Assembly: GCA_963820825.1 (NCBI GenBank)
Contig: CAWGBN010000009.1
Coordinates: 64,001 to 128,000, forward strand
Source: Vulcanimicrobiota bacterium
GTDB taxonomy: Bacteria; Vulcanimicrobiota; Vulcanimicrobiia; Vulcanimicrobiales; Vulcanimicrobiaceae
Length of the DNA: 64,000 nucleotides
Direction: 5' to 3'
The notes under the pieces are model-generated. The model was given only the letters and a program-made list of their open reading frames with translations. It was not told the origin of the DNA and searched no databases. Shown here in pieces: positions 47,754 to 63,701 of this stretch. A program made the position numbers and the translations under genes. The first letter of the stretch is position 1. Each line of letters opens with the position of its first letter.

Positions 47754-48418
47754 ACGCTCGCATCGCCGTCATCGATGACGAACCGCACATTCGCGATCTG
47801 CTCTCGCTCGCGCTCGGACACGCCGGCTACGCGGTACGCGGCGCCGCCGACGGGAGCGCGGGATTGACGCTCGTGCGGGAATGGTCTCCCGATCTCATCG
47901 TTCTCGACGTGATGATGCCCCGGGTCAGCGGGATCGAGCTCTTGCCGGCGATCCGGCGGATCACCGATGCGCCGGTCGTGATGCTGAGCGCGCGCGGCGA
48001 AGTCGAGAGCAAGGTCGAGGGACTCGCGCACGGCGCCGACGATTACCTCAGCAAACCGTTCGAAATCGCCGAGCTGCTCGCCCGGATCGACGCCAAACTG
48101 CGCCGGCCGCACATCGAGGGGCGGTCGACGCTCGAGTACGAGGGCCTCACCATCGATCTCGACGAGCACGTGGTCGAACGCGACGGCCGGCGTCTCGATC
48201 TCTCGCCGCTCGAATACGACCTCCTCGTGACGCTCTTACGCCGCCCCCGCCGCGTCTTTACGCGCGAGGAGTTGCTCGACGAAGTCTGGGGCGACGCGGA
48301 CGTCGGTACCGGCGCCGTCGAGCGCTACGTCTCGTATCTGCGCGGAAAGGTGGACGAGGGTTTCGCGCGCCCGCTGATTCAAACGATTCGCGGCGCGGGA
48401 TATACGCTGCGTGCCTGA
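47750..48418 (+). CDS. OmpR family response regulator
   Basis: IDDE, LDVMMP, GADDYLSKPF, winged helix TIRGAGY; GTGA overlap. Confidence 0.93.
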   Translation: MNARIAVIDDEPHIRDLLSLALGHAGYAVRGAADGSAGLTLVREWSPDLIVLDVMMPRVSGIELLPAIRRITDAPVVMLSARGEVESKVEGLAHGADDYLSKPFEIAELLARIDAKLRRPHIEGRSTLEYEGLTIDLDEHVVERDGRRLDLSPLEYDLLVTLLRRPRRVFTREELLDEVWGDADVGTGAVERYVSYLRGKVDEGFARPLIQTIRGAGYTLRA

Positions 48419-49757
48419 AGCCTTCGCCCCGTTCGCGAGCCGGCTCACGCGCGGGTACGTGCTGCTCGCCGTCGCGCTCGTCGCACTCGTCGTCATCGCC
48501 ACGAGCGTCCTCGCCTTTCTGCTCTACGTCGGTACGCTTAACGATGCGGTGGCAAACGAAGCGCATCGCATCACCGAACGCGCGGCCGCATACCAAGCGC
48601 TTCATCAGCCGCTGAGCGAGTACGCTCCGGCGCTTGCCGGCGAAGCCGGCGGCGCGCGCGTCGGCGTCCGCATCTACGACGACGACCGCCGGCTGCTCGC
48701 GCAGAGCGGCAGCCAAAATAGCGGTGCCGCCCGATGGACGCGCGGCGCGGCGGCGATTCTCGGCCTTCGTCCCGCGCTCGTGCGCGTCGCCGGCGGTACG
48801 ATCGTCGTCGCCCCCGATCTCGCCGGTTTCGCGCGCTTGCTCGAGCGCTATCTGATCTTCGTGACGCCGATCGGCGTGCTCGCCGTCCTGGCGGCGTGGC
48901 TGGTCGGGCGTGCGGTGACGCGCCGCGCCATCGCGCCGCTGCAAGAGGTTACGTCGGCACTGCATCGCATCGCATCGGGCGATTTTACGCCGGCACCGTT
49001 GCCGCCGGGCGAGCGCAGTCTGCGCGAACTCACTGCTGCGTATAACGAAGTCGCGCGCCGGCTCACCGCGGTGACGCTCGAACGCGATCGCAACGAGCTG
49101 CAGATGCGCCAGTTCATCGCCGATGCGGGGCACGAGCTGCGAACGCCGCTGACCATCGTCATGGGCTATCTGGAGATCCTGCAGCAAGGCGTCGTCGGCG
49201 ACGCGGCCGGCGTCGGACACGTCTACGAAACCATGCTCACCGAGAGCCGGCGCATGCGCGCGGCGATCGAGAAGCTCATCCTGCTGGCGCGTCTCGAGCG
49301 TCCTGCGCCCTCGCGCACCGAGCGCTTCGACGCTGCAGCGCTGGTTATGCGGGCGGCCGACGCTCTGGTGCCGCTCGCCGGCGCGGGGCGAATAACCGTG
49401 ACCGCGAACGGCGCACCGTGCAGCATCGACGCCGACGAAGCCGAGCTCTTCGAAGCGGTCAAGAACGTGCTCGAAAATGCGGTGCGTTACGCTCCCGGCT
49501 CGCCGATCGTCGTCGACGTTTCGTGCGACGGCGAGCGCGCGACGATCGCGGTGAGCGATCGTGGCCCCGGAATGGAGGCGCAAGACGTCGAGCACGCCTT
49601 CGATCGCTTCTATCGCGGCGGCGCGCGCAGCGGTGAGGGTTCGGGGCTCGGTCTCGCGATCGCCAAACGTGCGGTCGAGCGCGCCGGCGGCGCGATCGCG
49701 CTCGAGAGCCGCCCGGAAGTCGGAACCTGGGTAACCATTACGCTCCCCCGCGGGTAG
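48411..49757 (+). CDS. HAMP-domain sensor histidine kinase
   Basis: Two TMs, HAMP, DAGHELRTPL, NAVRY, DRGPG, GSGLGLAI. Confidence 0.93.
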   Translation: MPEAFAPFASRLTRGYVLLAVALVALVVIATSVLAFLLYVGTLNDAVANEAHRITERAAAYQALHQPLSEYAPALAGEAGGARVGVRIYDDDRRLLAQSGSQNSGAARWTRGAAAILGLRPALVRVAGGTIVVAPDLAGFARLLERYLIFVTPIGVLAVLAAWLVGRAVTRRAIAPLQEVTSALHRIASGDFTPAPLPPGERSLRELTAAYNEVARRLTAVTLERDRNELQMRQFIADAGHELRTPLTIVMGYLEILQQGVVGDAAGVGHVYETMLTESRRMRAAIEKLILLARLERPAPSRTERFDAAALVMRAADALVPLAGAGRITVTANGAPCSIDADEAELFEAVKNVLENAVRYAPGSPIVVDVSCDGERATIAVSDRGPGMEAQDVEHAFDRFYRGGARSGEGSGLGLAIAKRAVERAGGAIALESRPEVGTWVTITLPRG

Positions 49758-49765
49758 AGCCGAGT

Positions 49766-50233
49766 ATGAGCGTCAAAGTCTATGGGATCAACCACATTGC
49801 GATCGACGTCGACGACGTCGCGAAAGCCGTCGCCTTCTATCAAGACGTCTTCAATTTGGAGAAGCTCGACGAGGGCGAGGGCGACGCGTTCTTCAGGGTC
49901 GGCGAGCATCAGTTTCTCGCGATGTTCGAATCGCCGCGCGGCCCGGCGAACCGCACGCGCCACTTCGGCCTGATCGTGCGCGACGACGCGCAGCTCGCCG
50001 AAGTTCGAGAGAAGCTCACCGGAAAGTACGGAATAAAGTTGATTCCGCCGTTTCGCTGCGACTTCATCGATCCGTTCGGAAATCGCGTGCAGGTGGTCGA
50101 CCTGCACGACGAATCGTTGGTCTGGCTACTCCCCTACCGAGAGGTTCAGGACGTGTTCGGGCCGGAAGCCAAGGCCGACCAGCCGTCCGGGAATGCGCGG
50201 GAGAAAGGGGAGCCAGCGCAGCAACGCCGGTAA
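49766..50233 (+). CDS. VOC (glyoxalase-like) family protein
   Basis: INHIAIDVDD...AFYQDVF, HFGL, DPFGNRVQ. Confidence 0.85.
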   Translation: MSVKVYGINHIAIDVDDVAKAVAFYQDVFNLEKLDEGEGDAFFRVGEHQFLAMFESPRGPANRTRHFGLIVRDDAQLAEVREKLTGKYGIKLIPPFRCDFIDPFGNRVQVVDLHDESLVWLLPYREVQDVFGPEAKADQPSGNAREKGEPAQQRR

Positions 50234-51346
50234 GCGATGTAAGAGCGGCGCCCGTCCTGCTGTGAGTACGCGCCCGATGATTCGCCGCTGAATGAAGAGC
50301 TGCAGCCCTTGCGTTAGACGCGCCGCCGGCTCGCGCCGGCGCTGAACCGCGGCGAGGTCGCTCGCGGCGACGCCGCCGCGCAAGAGTTTCGGCGCGAGCA
50401 TATTTGCGCTCGCGACCGCATCCTGAATCGCGAGGTTGATGCCGACGCCGCCGATCGGTGACATGGCATGCGCCGCGTCGCCGATGCAGAGCAATCCCGA
50501 ACGATACCATTGCCGCAGACGATTCACGCGCACCGTCAACAGCTTGACGTCGTCCCAGCTTTGCAGCTCGCCGGCGCGATCGGCGAGAAACGGCACGATC
50601 GCCGCGACCTGCTCGCGAAAATCCGGCAATCCGCGCGCTTGAACCTCTGCGAAGGTGCCCTTGAGAATTACGTACGCGCACTGCCAGTAGAGACCGCGAT
50701 CGATCAGCGCCATAATGCGTCCGTCGCGAATGTATCCGAACGTTTCGTGCGGGTCGTCGGGGCGTTTCGTGATCCGAAGCCAGAGCACGTCCATAGGTGC
50801 ACCGAGCTCGATGACGTCGAGGCCGGCCCGCCGGCGCACAACCGACTCGCGCCCGTCGGCGGCGATCGTAAGATCGGCGCGAACGTCGAGCGGCCCCTGC
50901 GGCGTCTGCGCGCGAACGCCGGCGATACGCCCGTTCTCCCAGAGCAGATCTTCCGCGCGCGCCTGCATGCGAAGATCGAACGCCGGCGAGCGCTTCGCCT
51001 CCTCGGCCAAGAAGTTGAGGAAATCCCATTGCGGCATAAAAGCGACGAACTTGCAGCGGGTCGGCAGATGGGTAAAGTCGGCGACGGTGATCAGGGTATC
51101 GCCGAGGTTACCGGCAAGCGTCGTAACCTCTTGGTGCGGACGCTGAAGAAACGACTCGAGCACACCGAGCTCGTCCATGACGTCGAGCGTCGACGGATGG
51201 ATCGTATCGCCGCGAAAATCGCGTAAGAAGTCGGCGTGCTTTTCGAGGAGAACCGTCGCAACGCCGGCGCGCGCGAAGAGCAGCGCCGCCATCATTCCCG
51301 CCGGGCCGCCGCCGACGATGCAGCAACCCGCGCGTATCTCGCTCAT
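50126..51346 (-). CDS. FAD-dependent oxidoreductase (UbiH-like monooxygenase family)
   Basis: GGGPAG, DFRGDT, ADGR, GDAAHAMSPIGGVGINLAIQD. Confidence 0.9.
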   Translation of the reverse strand: MSEIRAGCCIVGGGPAGMMAALLFARAGVATVLLEKHADFLRDFRGDTIHPSTLDVMDELGVLESFLQRPHQEVTTLAGNLGDTLITVADFTHLPTRCKFVAFMPQWDFLNFLAEEAKRSPAFDLRMQARAEDLLWENGRIAGVRAQTPQGPLDVRADLTIAADGRESVVRRRAGLDVIELGAPMDVLWLRITKRPDDPHETFGYIRDGRIMALIDRGLYWQCAYVILKGTFAEVQARGLPDFREQVAAIVPFLADRAGELQSWDDVKLLTVRVNRLRQWYRSGLLCIGDAAHAMSPIGGVGINLAIQDAVASANMLAPKLLRGGVAASDLAAVQRRREPAARLTQGLQLFIQRRIIGRVLTAGRAPLLHRLPALLRWLPFLPRIPGRLVGLGFRPEHVLNLSVGE

Positions 51347-51852
51347 CGGAGGCTGCGCGTGTAAAAGTGATAGCGCGCGAACTCGGCTTCGCGCTTATTG
51401 ACCAGCGCCTCGCATGCCGCGCCGATCTCGTCGAGGAAGTTTACGAGCGAGCGTTCCGCGATGCCGGGCGTGAACGTCGCACCGACGAGTTTGCCGAAGA
51501 GCTGCATCGGCAACTCGTACGTGCCTTCGAGATAGAGCTTCGACTCGCCGAGGGTGCCGGGATCGGCGACGCCGACGCGCCCTTTGAAGCCGGGGAAGGC
51601 AGCCGGCAAGTTCGTCGAGGTGAAGGCGATGTCAAAGAGCCGGGCGTCGTTGGGATCTCTTTCGGCGGTGAGACTGATCGGCACCGCAACGTAACCGACG
51701 TCGGGAAGATGCAGATCGCCGAAGCTCACGTGCAATGCGAAGCCGCTCCACGGTCCCTCCTGGGCCGCGATCGCTTTCAAGACGTCGCCGAGCGCCTGAG
51801 CCGCGGAATCGGCGGGGACACCCAACTTGCGCTCGAGCCGTATCTTCGGCAC
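51343..51852 (-). CDS. Hypothetical protein (possible SRPBCC-like fold)
   Basis: AGGAGG SD before GTG 51852; FP.F.G...L.G.Y..P...G pattern; coupled to the FAD oxidoreductase. Confidence 0.6.
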   Translation of the reverse strand: MPKIRLERKLGVPADSAAQALGDVLKAIAAQEGPWSGFALHVSFGDLHLPDVGYVAVPISLTAERDPNDARLFDIAFTSTNLPAAFPGFKGRVGVADPGTLGESKLYLEGTYELPMQLFGKLVGATFTPGIAERSLVNFLDEIGAACEALVNKREAEFARYHFYTRSLR

Positions 51853-55015: not shown

Positions 55016-55924
55016 GTGACGGGGATGATTACTATGTGCCGCGCTTTTGGAGTCTGCGCGATTATTTCTATGCTTGCTGGATGCGCAGGGTCGCAGACGA
55101 GTGGAACGACAACGGGTGCCCTTCCGGCAACGGGTCTATCGCAACGCTCGATGACGCCAATGATACATCAGACGGTTTTTAGCTACACAGGTGGAGAGCA
55201 AACCTTCGAAGTCCCCTCTGGCGTAAAGTCTATCACCGTTGATGCTATAGGCGCTGCCGGAGCGGGTAACAGAAGGCTTGGTGCGCCGCCTGTGCGTGGC
55301 GGCCGTACCGAAGCCAAGGTACCCGTCACGCCTGGTGAGACGTTGTACGTTTTCGTCGGAGGCCGATGGTCCGCGGGTGGCTTCAACGGCGGTGGAAACG
55401 GCGGCTGCGGTGGATCCGGCGGTCGCTACGCGGGCGGTGGTGCGTCGGACGTGCGAGAGGGTGGCGATGGCCTGAGTAACCGCGTTGTCGTCGCTGGAGG
55501 TGCCGGTGGTGGCGGGGAGACCAAAGGGCACGGCGGTTTTGGCGGCGGCGAGGTCGGCGGATTGGGGCACGATGGCGGCAAGCGTCTCCTGCGCGGCGGC
55601 CAGGGCGGCGACGGGGGCACTCAAAGCCAGGGCGGAGCGAGCGGTGCTGGTGGTGCGCATTCTGGCAATCCCGGTAGCCCAGGAACACTAGGCGCGGGAG
55701 GTTCCGGAGGCCAGGGCGACAGCGACACCCATTGCGGTGGCGGTGGTGGCGGAGGCTACTACGGCGGCGGCGGCGGCGGAAGCGGATCGCGAGGCGGGGG
55801 CTCCGGTGGCGGTGGCGGCGGCGGGTCGTCATATGCCGAACCAAATGCCATTGGCCACGTGCAGATGTGGCAAGGTTGGCAAGATGCGACGAGCAACGGG
55901 GCGGTTACTCTCAGTTGGAAATAG
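55016..55924 (+). CDS. Glycine-rich domain lipoprotein (ALK/LTK-type Gly-rich domain)
   Basis: Lipobox LAGC; FSYTGGEQTF.VP.GV, GGGASDVR, VVAGGAGGGG, GGGGGYYGGGGG, GGGGSSY. Confidence 0.75.
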   Translation: MTGMITMCRAFGVCAIISMLAGCAGSQTSGTTTGALPATGLSQRSMTPMIHQTVFSYTGGEQTFEVPSGVKSITVDAIGAAGAGNRRLGAPPVRGGRTEAKVPVTPGETLYVFVGGRWSAGGFNGGGNGGCGGSGGRYAGGGASDVREGGDGLSNRVVVAGGAGGGGETKGHGGFGGGEVGGLGHDGGKRLLRGGQGGDGGTQSQGGASGAGGAHSGNPGSPGTLGAGGSGGQGDSDTHCGGGGGGGYYGGGGGGSGSRGGGSGGGGGGGSSYAEPNAIGHVQMWQGWQDATSNGAVTLSWK

Positions 55925-56052
55925 TCAGAGCACTGTAGCTATCCGGCGCTATTTTCGCTGTCTGCACGGAACAGAAGTTTAAAAGACAAAGCCGACCGGA
56001 CGACCGGAAAGCGGGAAAAGGTGAGCCTACCTACAATCTTAGGCACACCTAA

Positions 56053-57151
56053 ATGAAGCCATGGTTTCGATTCGCGTGCGCGCCGGCCTTCGGGGCGCTC
56101 GCGCTCGTCCTTCTTCTGCCGACGGTTGCTCTGGCGGACGCAGATGAGGTTGCCTCGCCGAACTCAACGACCCTCGGTCTGCAGCCGATCCGCGGGCCGA
56201 TTCCGCAAGCGACGGCCGCTCCAGGCGAGTCGAGCGTCTTCCGCCGAGCCGATGGAGCCTACCAAGCGATTCCCACCGTGCAAGGGCGGACGAAGACGTT
56301 CCACATCGTCGAGCGCGCCGCGCCGTGGACGCTCGCAGCCCGGGCTGACCGTGATGGCCAACACGTATAACGGCGTCGTTCCCGGTCCGGCGATGGTCGT
56401 GCAAGCAAGGCGACACCGTCGTCATCGACTACACGAACGACGACGCGACCCCCGACTCGATTCACCTGCACGGCGTTCACGACATCCCGGTCTCGATGGA
56501 CGGCGTCGGCGGCATCTCGCAGCGACTCGTTCCGACCGGCGGCACACTTCGTCTATCGTTTCATCGCCGACCAGCCCGGCACGTTTATCTATCACTCGCA
56601 CGACGACGAGGCGATGGTCGACTCCGGACTCTACGGCGCGATCATCGTCGAGCCGTCGCAATCCGCGGCCGGTCGAACGCGGCTTGGCGCACGACTTTCT
56701 CGAGATGATCTCGTCGTGGCAGATCCAGAGCGCGGCCGAGAACCACTTCACGCTCAACGGCAAGGAGTATCCGGCGACGCGCGCGCTCGACGTCCGCCGC
56801 GGCGAGCGCTTTCGCATTCGCTGGATCAACATCTCGGGCGAAGAGTTTCACACGATGCACACGCACGGGCACTATCAGCAGATCGTCGCCCGCGACGCCG
56901 CGCCGGTCGATTATCACGACGTCCAGGATACGGTGCTGGTCGCGCCGGGACAGCGCGTCGACGTCGTCGTCGACGCCAACGCGCAGCCCGGAACGTGGCT
57001 GATGCATTGCCACGTGCTCGATCACATCGAAGACGCACGCGGCATGCCCGAGCGGTCTCATCACCGCGATTCATTACGTCGGAACGCCGAATACCCTCAC
57101 CGTCGATGTATCGCGCGATGATGCCCGCCGCATCTCCGACCCGCGCGCGCG
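56053..57151 (+). CDS. Two-domain multicopper oxidase (several +1 indels; probably fused to the ZIP domain)
   Basis: Across frames: signal peptide, YNGVVPGP, IHLHG, MDGV, YHSH, HTMHTHGH, WLMHCHVLDH. Confidence 0.85.
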
Positions 57152-57940
57152 TTGAGCTTCTGGGCTGACGGTACTGCTCGGCGCGATCGCGGGCTTCACG
57201 ATCTTTCTCGGATTGCCGATCGCGCGCGCGCGGCGGCTCTCGCCGCAGACCGTCGCGCTGCTCAACGCGCTCGCAATCGGGATTCTTGCTCTATCTCGTC
57301 GTCGAGATCGCGCAGAACGCGATCCTCCCGATCTCGCAAGGGCGTCAACGCCTGGCACGCCGGTGCGGGCGGCGTTTCCCGATTGCGGAGGTGCTCGTTT
57401 TTGTCGCCGGTCTTGCTGATCGGCTTGGTCGGCCTCGGCAGCGCGGCGACCCATCTCACGCGCCGGGCCGCTTCGCACGCCGAGAATCCGATCGTGCTCG
57501 CGGCGATCATCGCGATTGGGATCGGCGCGCACAACTTCGGCGAGGGACTTGGCGATCGGCGCGTCGGCCGCCTCGGGCGCGACCGCCGTCGCGATCGCGC
57601 TGATCGTCGGCTTCGGCCTGCACAACGCCACCGAAGGCTTCGGCGTGGCTGCCCCGCTGGTCGGACGCGTCGTTCCGACGTGGGCGCAGATCGGTCTCGC
57701 CGGACTGATCGCCGGCGGGCCCGACCTTCATCGGAACGATCCTTGGCTACAGCTTCTACTCGCCGATGCTCTCGGTGCTTCTTCCTCGCGATCGCCGTCG
57801 GCGCGCTGGTTTTCGTGATCGGCGAGTTGTGGAGCGTGCTGCGCCGAACCGGCTTAACCGGATTCGTCACGGCAACGATGTGCCTCGGCTTTCTGATCGC
57901 GCTGGCAACGGAGCTTTTTCTCGATATCAACGGAGGATAA
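57152..57940 (+). CDS. ZIP (GufA/ZupT-like) metal transporter domain (several indels)
   Basis: LLGAIAGFTIFLGLP, GIGAHNFGEGLAIG, GFGLHNATEGFGVAAP, LAIAVGALVFVIGEL. Confidence 0.85.
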   Translation: MSFWADGTARRDRGLHDLSRIADRARAAALAADRRAAQRARNRDSCSISSSRSRRTRSSRSRKGVNAWHAGAGGVSRLRRCSFLSPVLLIGLVGLGSAATHLTRRAASHAENPIVLAAIIAIGIGAHNFGEGLGDRRVGRLGRDRRRDRADRRLRPAQRHRRLRRGCPAGRTRRSDVGADRSRRTDRRRARPSSERSLATASTRRCSRCFFLAIAVGALVFVIGELWSVLRRTGLTGFVTATMCLGFLIALATELFLDINGG

Positions 57941-57944
57941 CGCT

Positions 57945-58245
57945 ATGACGTTCGAGGAGTTCTATCCCGAGTATCTCGCGGCGCATCGCGATCGCCGCAC
58001 CAAGATCGTCCACACCGCGGGCTTATCGAGCGGCTTGGCGGTCGGCGCTGCCGGGTTTGCGCTGCGCCGGCCGGCATTGGTAGCTCGGCGGTTTAGCTCT
58101 GGGCTACTTTCCGGCGTTCGTCTCGCATTGGGTCTTCGAGAAGAATCAACCGAAGACGCTCGAACACCCGGCGCTCTCGTTTTGCGGCGACTTCGTCATG
58201 GTCTATCAGTTCCTGACCGGGACGCTCCGCGAAGCGGAGGAGTAA
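57945..58245 (+). CDS. DUF962/Mpo1-like small membrane protein (frameshift near 58086)
   Basis: FEEFYPEYLAAH..R.TK.VH; after the shift GYFPAFVSHWVFEKNQP.T.EHP...GDF. Confidence 0.8.
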
Positions 58246-61158: not shown

Positions 61159-62201
61159 ATGGGAGAGCTCATGCGGTCAGTGACTCGTCGACAAGCAATG
61201 CTCGCAATCTCCAGTGTAGCGGCGTCAAGCATGCTGCGTCCGATCGTTGGACGCGCCGAGACCGACCCTTTGCCCTCCTGGAGCCGTGGGCCGGCGAAAC
61301 AAGCCGTTCTCGATTTCGTGCGCGTCACTATTGATTCGTCAAGTTCAAAGTATGTCGCACCGAAAGAGCGTCTCGCAGCCTTCGATCAGGATGGAACGAC
61401 GTGGGTGGAGCATCCTTTCTACACGGAGCTGGTATTCGCATTGGACCGCGTCGTGGAGCTAGCCCCCCAGCACCCATCCTGGAATACGACGGAACCGTTT
61501 CAGTCCGTTCTCGCCGGCAACAAGGCGGCGATGGCAAGCTCCACGACGAAGGACCTCGAAGCCATCGTCGCCGTCACCCACTCGGGGATGCCCGTCGGCG
61601 CGTTCCAACAGCTGCCAGAACCTGGATCGCGAAGGCGAGGAACCGGCGCTGGAATCGGCCCTACACCGACTTGGTCTATCAACCGATGCTGGAAGTGATG
61701 CGCTACCTGCGCGCCAATGGATACCACACGTACATTGTAACCGGTGGTGGCCAAGACTTCGTGCGTGTATATTCCGAGCGAGTGTACGGCGTACCGCCCG
61801 AACAGGTCATCGGCTCCGCCGGGGATACTCGATTCGAGTACGGCGAAAGCGGCAAAGCGGCCCTGATTAAGGCGCCAAAGCTGTTGCTCAACAATAATAT
61901 GTCGGGTAAGCCGGAAGACATCTATCTGTTCACGGGCCTTCAGCCGCGGGCCGCATTCGGAAACAGCACCGGCGATCAGCAGATGCTCGAATACACGGGC
62001 CGTGGCGATGGGACGCGTTTGATGATGCTGGTGCTACACGACGATGCAGAACGCGAGAATGCATATGGACCGGCCGAGGGTCTGCCCAGCACGAAGGTAG
62101 GCACCTTTACTCAAGCGCTATACGACGAAGCAAAGGCCAAGGGCTGGTTCGTGATCAGTATGAAAAGGGACTGGAAACGTATCTTCGCTTTCGAGGCTTA
62201 A
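61159..62201 (+). CDS. Tat-exported HAD family phosphatase (frameshift near 61612)
   Basis: TRRQAM twin-Arg; AFDQDGT; second frame VYQPMLE, IVTGGG, FGNSTGD, HDDAERE.AY, SMKRDW. Confidence 0.85.
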
Positions 62202-62243: not shown

Positions 62244-63701
62244 ATGCCCCTGCACCGGCGAGTGCTCCCGCGCGACTCCGATATAACCGACGTCTACGCG
62301 ACGCGGGCTATGGACGCGACGATCCCCAAACACCGCGTGCCTGCCGAAGGCTTGCGCCCGGACGTAGCGTTGCAGCTCGTCGTCGACGAGCTGATGCTCG
62401 ACGGTAATGCCCGGCAGAATCTCGCAACGTTCTGCCAGACGTGGTTCGACGACGGAATCCACAAGCTCATGGATCTCAGCCTCGACAAGAACATGATCGA
62501 CAAGGACGAGTATCCGGCAACGGCGGAGATCGAGAGCCGCTGCGTGCACTTGCTGGCGCATCTATGGAATTCGCCGGCAGCCGGAACGACGATCGGATGC
62601 TCGACGACCGGTTCGAGCGAAGCTGCGATGCTCGGCGGGCTCGCCCTCAAGTGGAAGTGGCGCGAACGTCGCGCGAAGGCCGGTAAGCCCAGCGACAAGC
62701 CGAACATCATTACCGGGCCGGTGCAAGTTTGTTGGCACAAGTTCGCACGCTACTTCGACGTCGAGCTTCGGGAGGTTCCACTGGAGCGCGACCGTCTGGT
62801 CATGACGCCGGAGGAAGTCCTCAAGCGCGTCGACGAGAACACGATCGGCGTCGTGCCGACGTTCGGCGTCACGTTCACGTGTCAATACGAGCCGGTCGCG
62901 CAAATCGCCGAAGCGCTCGACACGCTCCAACGCGATACCGGACTCGATATTCCGATCCACGTCGACGGCGCGTCCGGCGCATTCATCGCGCCGTTCGTCG
63001 AGCCCGAGATCCTGTGGGATTTTCGCTTGCCGCGCGTGCGATCGATCAACGCGTCCGGCCATAAATTTGGATTGGCGCCGCTGGGCGTCGGGTGGGTGAT
63101 TTGGCGCGAAGCGAGCGATCTGCCCGAAGGCCTCGATCTTCCACGTCAACTATCTCGGCGGCGACATGCCGACGTTCGCGCTCAACTTCTCTCGGCCCGG
63201 CGGACAGGTCATCTGCCAATACTATCTGATGCTGCGCCTGGGCATGGACGGCTACCGGCGCATCCACCAAGGCTGCTACGACGTCGCGCAACACGTCGCG
63301 CGCCGCATCGCCGCGCTCGGTCCGTTCGAAGTGCTCTTCGACGGCGACAGCCGCAATGGAATTCCGGCGGTATCGTGGACGATGCGCAATCCGGGTGCGG
63401 GATATTCGCTATTCGACCTCTCCGATCGATTGCGCGCGCGCGGCTGGCAGGTCGCCGCGTACACGATGGTCCCGAACATCACCGACATGGCCGTGATGCG
63501 CGTGCTGATCCGACACGGCTTTAGCCTGGATTCTGCCGACGCATTACTCGAAGATCATTCGCCGGTCTTTGGAATACTTCAAGACGCATCCGATTTCTAA
63601 ACCGATGACGGAGCGAGGAGGGCGCCTCGCACGATCACCATGCGCGCCCGCGCGCGGTCGGCGTCAGGCGCGAGATCAGTGAGACGCAACGTGCAACTTG
63701 A
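62244..63701 (+). CDS. gadB: Glutamate decarboxylase (frameshifts near 63137, 63557 and 63614)
   Basis: [41 protein letters not shown] (PLP Lys), [17 protein letters not shown]. Confidence 0.9.

Follow-up and report, generated by a model that had tools for sequence, protein, structure and literature searches.

ZIP proteins are carriers of divalent ions and have been studied as stand-alone transporters; coupling of uptake to an oxidase is known from the FTR1 family. Both ends of the eight-helix ZIP core face outward, and we know of no ZIP that carries Fe(III). In the yeast Fet3p-Ftr1p system (OFeT), an outward-facing multicopper oxidase is combined with an iron permease under iron-type regulation (PMC9174327; this and the other publications cited by identifier are drawn on in part), Fet3p being a three-domain monomer and Ftr1 a seven-helix FTR1 protein. 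The permease of EfeUOB and FtrABCD is accompanied by a cupredoxin, the EfeO module, and a DyP peroxidase, the EfeB module, the multicopper oxidase being the partner of Ftr1 (PMC9174327). The nearest precedent for the locus described here is a gene pair of ammonia-oxidising archaea (NVIE_000600 / NVIE_000590), in which a ZIP gene adjoins the gene for MCO1, a two-domain oxidase with Leu at the axial position (PMC7785015, PMC7819960); oxidase-assisted copper uptake has been proposed for this pair and called unvalidated (PMC7785015). Two-domain oxidases with the T1 site in domain 2 are classified as type B; according to the part of PMC13151041 used here, type-B enzymes form trimers in which the O2-reducing cluster lies between subunits and the T1 sites look onto a central tunnel, one of them has been demonstrated to be a slow laccase on phenolics, and the physiological roles of two-domain copper oxidases are poorly understood.

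The gene examined here lies in the window (the whole stretch of 64,000 nucleotides that was analysed) and encodes a signal peptide, a two-domain multicopper oxidase and a ZIP domain (Table 1). It resembles Fet3p-Ftr1p in its combination of outward oxidase, putative iron permease and apparent iron-type regulation; however, its oxidase has two domains and is likely trimeric, and its permease is an eight-helix ZIP with HNxxEG motifs in the same polypeptide. Because the fusion protein has no FTR1 match (nor was one found in genome G000), it would at most function like the OFeT system and is not a member of it. The ZIP group of the fusion is elsewhere fused to the same two module types that accompany the permease in EfeUOB and FtrABCD, but here a ZIP takes the role of permease and a complete multicopper oxidase that of oxidant. 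Whereas the archaeal MCO1 and ZIP are two separate genes, the fusion is one chain. Two cupredoxin domains and a full set of T2/T3 His are shared with the two-domain oxidases 2zwn and 3g5w (type C) and SLAC and CjMCO (type B), and a long post-His loop with 2zwn and 3g5w; the fusion has its T1 site in domain 2, whereas these two closest structures have it in domain 1, and it is unlike all of these enzymes in its axial Leu and in being tethered to a transporter. The ZIP half has the eight-helix core and the TM4/TM5 metal motifs of BbZIP and ZupT, but belongs to a divergent subgroup, has Pro in neither motif and carries an enzyme as outer domain. The initial annotation had proposed an oxidase physically coupled to metal transport in an unfamiliar architecture; the single chain supports the coupling, and no description of an oxidase-ZIP fusion was found in the limited body of papers searched.

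In a six-frame view, the oxidase and ZIP motifs between 56053 and 57940 were spread across three frames, and three fragments of the gene were recognised as Pfam copper-oxidase pieces. All the motifs on which the reading as signal peptide, two-domain oxidase and ZIP had been based were found in place, and the placeable indels, which had been taken as +1 insertions, proved to be so: global alignment with 15 intact relatives gave 16 single-base insertions (at about 56335, 56403, 56543, 56659, 57047, 57102, 57139, 57164, 57286, 57343, 57368, 57378, 57413, 57548, 57718 and 57777) and no consistent deletion. The insertion at the junction, whose removal near 57139 had been suggested to join the two frames, was placed at about 57125-57155 depending on the relative and in the 57138-57143 bin for seven of the 15, and a Shine-Dalgarno-like sequence was indeed absent upstream of 57152. 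Subtraction of the 16 bases from 1888 leaves 1872, that is, 623 amino acids and a stop codon, the same length as in relatives L007-L009. The read-through is stop-free, has 88-91% amino-acid identity to the relatives, and gave dN/dS values of 0.083-0.122 (three pairs; a fourth, mis-aligned pair was left out) compared with 0.085 for a pair of intact relatives.

When 41 genomes were searched at the DNA level, this stretch was recovered as a whole in 23 of the 24 genomes of the same genus, at 78-84% identity; homologues of the fusion carry the source labels Candidatus Cybelea and Eremiobacteraeota. The single reading frame of about 620 amino acids that the initial annotation proposed to seek in related genomes was found: an uninterrupted frame of about 623 residues crosses the oxidase-ZIP junction in 12 of 14 close loci, the exceptions (L003 and L004, from genomes 74% and 69% complete) having frameshifts at several other gene positions too. 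Among 20 further regions, reaching another family, the junction is in one frame in all 19 that contain it (including L025, from the unpublished genome G036), and the T1 motif and both HNxxEG motifs occur in a single chain in 119 of the best 120 among 685 protein matches. The possibility of two genes separated by a stop at the junction, raised as what would refute a fusion, is ruled out by the open frames in relatives together with the insertion alignment. Judging from these frames, the fusion is real, as a single chain in relatives. Sequencing errors, in a patch of poor coverage, likely account for the breaks in the window copy. That this copy is instead a decayed pseudogene, with 16 genuine insertions, would agree with the intact state of the four genes at 48411-51852; nevertheless we regard it as very improbable, since all 16 changes are +1, with neither a stop nor a deletion, the read-through dN/dS is close to that of intact relatives, the adjacent downstream gene and a DtxR-family gene on the same contig are likewise frameshifted, and the operator is perfect.

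Table 1. Features of the fusion locus (window coordinates; domain ends are approximate where so marked).
Feature	Position	Strand	Remarks
Weaker second DtxR-type operator (putative)	56017..56030	.	22 bp upstream of the main operator; 3 mismatches to TTAGG-N4-CCTAA
TACAAT, -10-like hexamer (putative promoter)	56032..56037	+	Between the operator sites; varies among relatives
Main operator TTAGGCACACCTAA, DtxR/IdeR-type palindrome (putative)	56039..56052	.	Directly 5' of the start codon; exact in 15/15 loci (L001-L015)
Fusion gene: signal peptide, two-domain multicopper oxidase and ZIP	56053..57940	+	623 aa minus insertions; from alignment to relatives
Sec-type signal peptide (predicted)	56053..56136	+	Ends ALA (56128-56136), AxA motif; putative cleavage site; no twin-arginine
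Cupredoxin domain 1 (Pfam Cu-oxidase_3)	56284..56655 (ends approximate)	+	No T1 Cys
Domain 1 motifs	HxH 56463-56471; MDG 56496-56504; HxH 56593-56601	+	HLHG at 56463-56474; YHSH at 56590-56601
Cupredoxin domain 2 (Cu-oxidase_2)	56690..57075 (ends approximate)	+	
Domain 2 motifs	HTMHTH from 56849 (HTMHTHGH 56849-56872); HCHxxxH (HCHVLDH) 57005-57025	+	
MPSGL, with the axial-position Leu	57044-57059	+	Leu invariant
Linker	57076..57151	+	Met-containing, about 25 residues; two of the insertions inside
ZIP domain	57152..57937	+	8 predicted helices; HNFGEG 57530-57548; HNATEG 57621-57638

Directly 3' of the fusion, a gene for an Mpo1-like small membrane protein (57945-58245) is frameshifted in the window and intact beside the fusion in several relatives. 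Upstream, 55016-55924 encodes a glycine-rich, secreted protein that matches an ALK/LTK glycine-rich domain and is not conserved beside the fusion. Two genes farther downstream, which we take to encode a HAD-like hydrolase (61159-62201) and a glutamate-decarboxylase-like protein (62244-63600), each seem to be split over two frames.

Residues of the oxidase and ZIP halves are numbered according to the intact relative P0001. The twin-arginine pattern [ST]RRxF was absent from all 17 N-termini checked. Both Pfam domains, Cu-oxidase_3 and Cu-oxidase_2, score above cut-off. Among 17 diverse fusions, the T1 ligands H266, C319 and H324, the T2/T3 His H138, H140, H181, H183, H269, H271, H318 and H320, and also D150 and the axial L335, are invariant, and the domain 1 motif is without Cys in all 17; the confinement of the T1 Cys to domain 2, as first read from the window, is thus borne out by the motif positions. 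As judged by these motifs, the oxidase half is a complete type-B two-domain multicopper oxidase. Its nearest solved structures by sequence are 2zwn and 3g5w, and the oxidase model matches 2zwn with a Z score of 20.3. By analogy with the type-B enzymes, it may assemble as a homotrimer. Fet3p has an acidic Fe site beside T1, formed by E185, D283 and D409. In the primary sequence of the fusion, acidic residues occur near the T1 ligands, D323 and D190 being invariant and E264 common.

Eight helices were predicted from residue 368 onward (AlphaFold2; pLDDT 69, pTM 0.47), so that the predicted fold agrees with the annotated order of a two-domain oxidase followed by an eight-helix ZIP core, the orientation of the two halves being left unfixed by the model at this pTM. 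The ZIP model superimposes on residues 54-308 of BbZIP 7z6m (Z 20.7, rmsd 3.2, 234 residues), and both HNxxEG motifs (H490/N491/E494 and H520/N521/E524) are invariant in 72 rows, aligning to HNLPEG and QDVPEG of BbZIP. The M1 ligand set is His, Glu, His, Glu, an ordinary broad-range set, and at the second metal site Asn and Thr occupy the places of BbZIP D208 and E240; these assignments rely on the metal-ligand roles that we take the BbZIP positions to have. P0001 scored 22.8 bits against Pfam Zip (cut-off 35.1) and 37.6 against ZupT (cut-off 252), several relatives of the same subgroup exceed the Pfam Zip cut-off, and a profile search matched BbZIP at E 1e-11. On these matches and the predicted fold, the ZIP half is a divergent ZIP transporter with intact metal-site residues. 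From its place between a Sec signal and the eight-helix core, the oxidase should be periplasmic, and since both ends of such a core face outward it would be periplasmic in either fusion order.

At all 15 loci, 0-3 bases separate the end of TTAGG-N4-CCTAA from the start codon, and the transcript is likely leaderless; a counterpart to the weaker second site, of the form AGG-N4-CCTA, can be seen with equal spacing in the 15 upstream regions. In the 2.98-Mb genome G000 the exact sequence has just two matches. The IdeR box is a palindrome of CCTAA repeats that overlaps the promoters of repressed iron-uptake genes (PMC10317159), and TTAGG-N4-CCTAA corresponds to its 14-bp unit, short of the full 19-bp box. 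A DtxR-family gene lies directly upstream of the fusion, under the same box, in family f3. A regulator of the f3 type, with Met/Cys, was also seen directly downstream of the fusion in a genome of family f1 (L329, G185:C115:4435). G000 holds two DtxR-family genes, one with Met10/Cys102 and one of Asp/Glu type before mntH. The former combination, which also occurs in nine of nine f3 sequences, has been tied to Fe(II) selectivity (PMC10317159). The Met/Cys gene of G000 (L038, G000:C9:23456-24130) is frameshifted, and the first 24 kb of C9 have a low density of intact ORFs. The Asp/Glu regulator has a different palindrome in five of five genomes, for instance TTA(A/C)CCATGG(C/T)TAA at G000:C8:147894-149800 (L046), and in G027 (L076) a Cyc2-like paralogue is preceded by a palindrome matching that of MntR-mntH. 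Because three box-bearing genomes have only a DtxR gene of the first kind, the box was assigned to this kind.

Among the parsed regulators of the family, Cys102 is present in 49 of 49, Glu occupies position 10 in 43 of 51 and Met in 8 of 51, and the ancillary His79 is lost in the Met forms. Of the parsed genomes, 20 of the 28 with the fusion and all 23 without it have Glu10, whereas Met10 is found in 8 of 28 and none of 23, respectively (kin counted as if independent; 3 of 54 unparsed); Met10 was therefore rejected as a marker of fusion carriers except in one direction. Since Glu10 prevails elsewhere, a repressor of clear iron specificity is confined to this genus, f3 and a few other genera.

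The second exact box of G000 precedes a gene whose 371-aa product has a predicted porin barrel and the Cyc2 motif AxPxFA...CxxCH...PxL, which differs by one change from the consensus given in bioRxiv 10.1101/228056. Homologues of this Cyc2-like porin were found in 41 of 41 genomes searched, and the exact box precedes the gene in 24 of 30 loci. In G000 it stands with a YceI gene under the same tandem operator (G000:C2:283397-285083; L036:6398-8083), at a locus distinct from that of a weaker paralogue (G000:C6:326552). Across 111 evenly sampled genomes of the family, just two contain FTR1 or FeoB_C; each of the two has both genes and lacks the fusion, and in both the box precedes the FTR1 iron permease; the replacement of the fusion by an EfeUOB-type FTR1 under the same box, and with it the evidence from FTR1 and FeoB, comes from one genus. 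TonB-dependent receptors are under the box in G080 and G145, which have no fusion, and an Nramp-family gene is under it in G147, G109 and G073 (L191, L193 and L195), all likewise without the fusion. The Nramp-family gene has an ADTEAGS motif, and a divergent MauE/DoxX gene lies there in two of the three. Counts of the exact box over whole genomes were near the backward control, and several exact matches had no clear target; it is the position of the box, rather than its genome-wide count, that is informative. The fusion is neither essential nor the sole possible iron route, because 46 of the 111 genomes lack the fusion, FTR1 and FeoB altogether and 110 have a FecCD-type permease.

The fusion ZIP type occurs in 63 of the 111 genomes, always at the fusion locus (four to five of these genomes are unpublished and contribute to the counts alone), and the fusion is present in 11 of 11 f3 genomes and 2 of 5 f2 genomes. 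The gene is conserved throughout the class. In both fusion-bearing f2 genomes, about 2 kb separates the fusion from a VIT1-family gene (L027:2332-3036 and L028:455-1159). Among the loci listed, matches from other families of the phylum had the oxidase half only, the ZIP half not being seen. Oxidase-only forms ending in one membrane helix were observed in L160 (G050), which has no operator, and P0126. Among the best 150 matches of a profile search against 50%-identity representatives, two were full-length forward fusions and three had the reverse order, ZIP then oxidase; in one reverse fusion (P0172) the ZIP has lost both metal motifs. A search for the ZIP in long proteins gave, among 120 of 557 matches, 6 with an oxidase, 16 with a cupredoxin and 2 with a DyP peroxidase, and a ZIP-cytochrome c fusion is also present. 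P0381 and P0383 are single chains of ZIP, cupredoxin and DyP peroxidase, an EfeU-O-B-like order on a ZIP, and ZIP-cupredoxin-helical proteins of the P0279 type are common, some being labelled Acidobacteria. Standalone same-group oxidases whose helical N-terminal domain has no family assignment occur in Neobacillus niacini (P0133 / P0277), and all matches of such a domain in an atlas search were below 0.8. Forward fusions fell into two clades in a quick tree of the ZIP, but a single forward-fusion origin was compatible with the data (AU; p = 0.278, on 36 of 74 rows), and the opposite domain order is the sole argument for separate fusion events.

Standalone members of the ZIP subgroup are common in Chloroflexota and Actinomycetota. 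Among 80 ZIP loci, an oxidase was present in the three fusions only, and a DtxR-family gene was nearby in 23; since no oxidase gene was seen near the 77 non-fused loci (flanks of up to 4 kb, some shorter), this ZIP type needs no neighbouring oxidase. The 14-bp box was found at 22 of 74 standalone ZIPs versus 0.16 in shuffles, and the 19-bp IdeR box (up to 4 mismatches) at 11 of 74 versus 0.02. When metagenomes were scanned for the surroundings of the reverse fusions, a ZIP was nearby in 1 of the 80 loci listed, and the oxidases there were generic.

The initial annotation had left open whether Fe, Mn, Zn or Cu is transported. The promoter, the regulon and the gene-replacement evidence favour iron, which is probably the cargo, and we tentatively suggest, at somewhat less than an even chance, that the fusion carries out oxidase-assisted iron import, in which Fe(II) is oxidised and handed to the ZIP. 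A DtxR-type iron-sensing repressor would leave the box, allowing synthesis of one membrane protein that imports iron, with the oxidase in the periplasm ahead of the eight-helix core. Three chains may assemble, so that their ZIP domains would lie beneath a central tunnel with the T1 sites along its wall; a trimer is proposed because two-domain oxidases build their O2-reducing copper cluster between subunits. Fe(II) would reach the periplasm, perhaps by way of the co-regulated Cyc2-like haem porin or around it, be oxidised at T1 with O2 as acceptor, and be passed to the tethered ZIP as from Fet3 to Ftr1, this being the weakest step. The wider proposal that a ZIP subgroup independently became an oxidase-coupled iron permease, with a trimeric oxidase that caps three ZIPs and supplies them with newly oxidised iron, downstream of an iron-repressed Cyc2-like porin, is more doubtful. 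A counterpoint to oxidase-assisted iron import is that ZIPs are known for divalent ions and that the M1 set is a broad-range one.

For this reason, and because most relatives lack an adjacent oxidase, the main rival is import of Fe(II) unchanged by the ZIP, with the oxidase as a guard or helper at the pore mouth that removes Cu(I) or O2, or that oxidises phenolic chelators and so frees iron. This agrees with the chemistry of ZIPs and with the 77 non-fused loci, many of which have the same box, and all the evidence on iron regulation counts equally for it; the slow laccase activity of a type-B enzyme on phenolics (PMC13151041) also fits. Taken alone, however, it leaves unexplained why ZIPs of this group are fused, in both orders, to several one-electron oxidant modules, and we consider it unlikely, if a serious contender.

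The two readings that give up iron as the sole cargo are both weaker. DtxR-family repressors are described as sensors of Fe(II) and Mn(II) (PMC10317159, PMC11672702). A manganese or mixed Mn/Fe importer under a Mn-responsive member of that family, with the oxidase acting on Mn(II), would account for the Glu10/Cys102 regulator of most family members and for the best, sub-threshold NCBIfam label of the f3 regulator, which is the MntR model; the Nramp-family gene under the box in three genomes fits manganese equally, and the axial Leu suggests a high potential (PMC13151041). It is nonetheless improbable, given that a distinct Asp/Glu MntR-mntH locus with a different box exists in G000 and four further genomes, that the box is also at FTR1 and TonB receptors, and that the regulator of this genus has Met10/Cys102. 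Conversion of Cu(I) by the oxidase to Cu(II), a divalent ion fit for a ZIP, would make the fusion a copper importer and gives the best chemical match between oxidase product and ZIP substrate; the Met residues in the linker and the archaeal gene pair, with its axial Leu and a modest rise in expression when copper is limiting (PMC7785015), point the same way. Against this, DtxR-family repressors sense Fe(II) and Mn(II) according to the sources cited above, the co-regulated genes are of iron type, and conserved copper-handling neighbours were not seen around the fusion loci, so that a copper importer appears distinctly improbable.

If the wider proposal of an oxidase-coupled ZIP subgroup is true, a ZIP would for the first time be seen to accept a redox-handed (ferric) ion, and Fet3-Ftr1 and EfeUOB would have a convergent twin in the fusion. 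One fused chain makes the redox coupling of a ZIP testable. The fusion also offers a role for two-domain copper oxidases and a test of the archaeal oxidase-ZIP idea. On the wider proposal, this Cyc2-like gene of Eremiobacteria would serve iron assimilation, not energy metabolism. Its position under an apparently iron-repressed box is a warning to surveys that use Cyc2 as a marker of iron-oxidising metabolism (e.g. PMC8357290). The fusion gene occurs in more than half of the genomes sampled from this soil family, of which almost all lack FeoB and FTR1, and may be their main route for unchelated iron.
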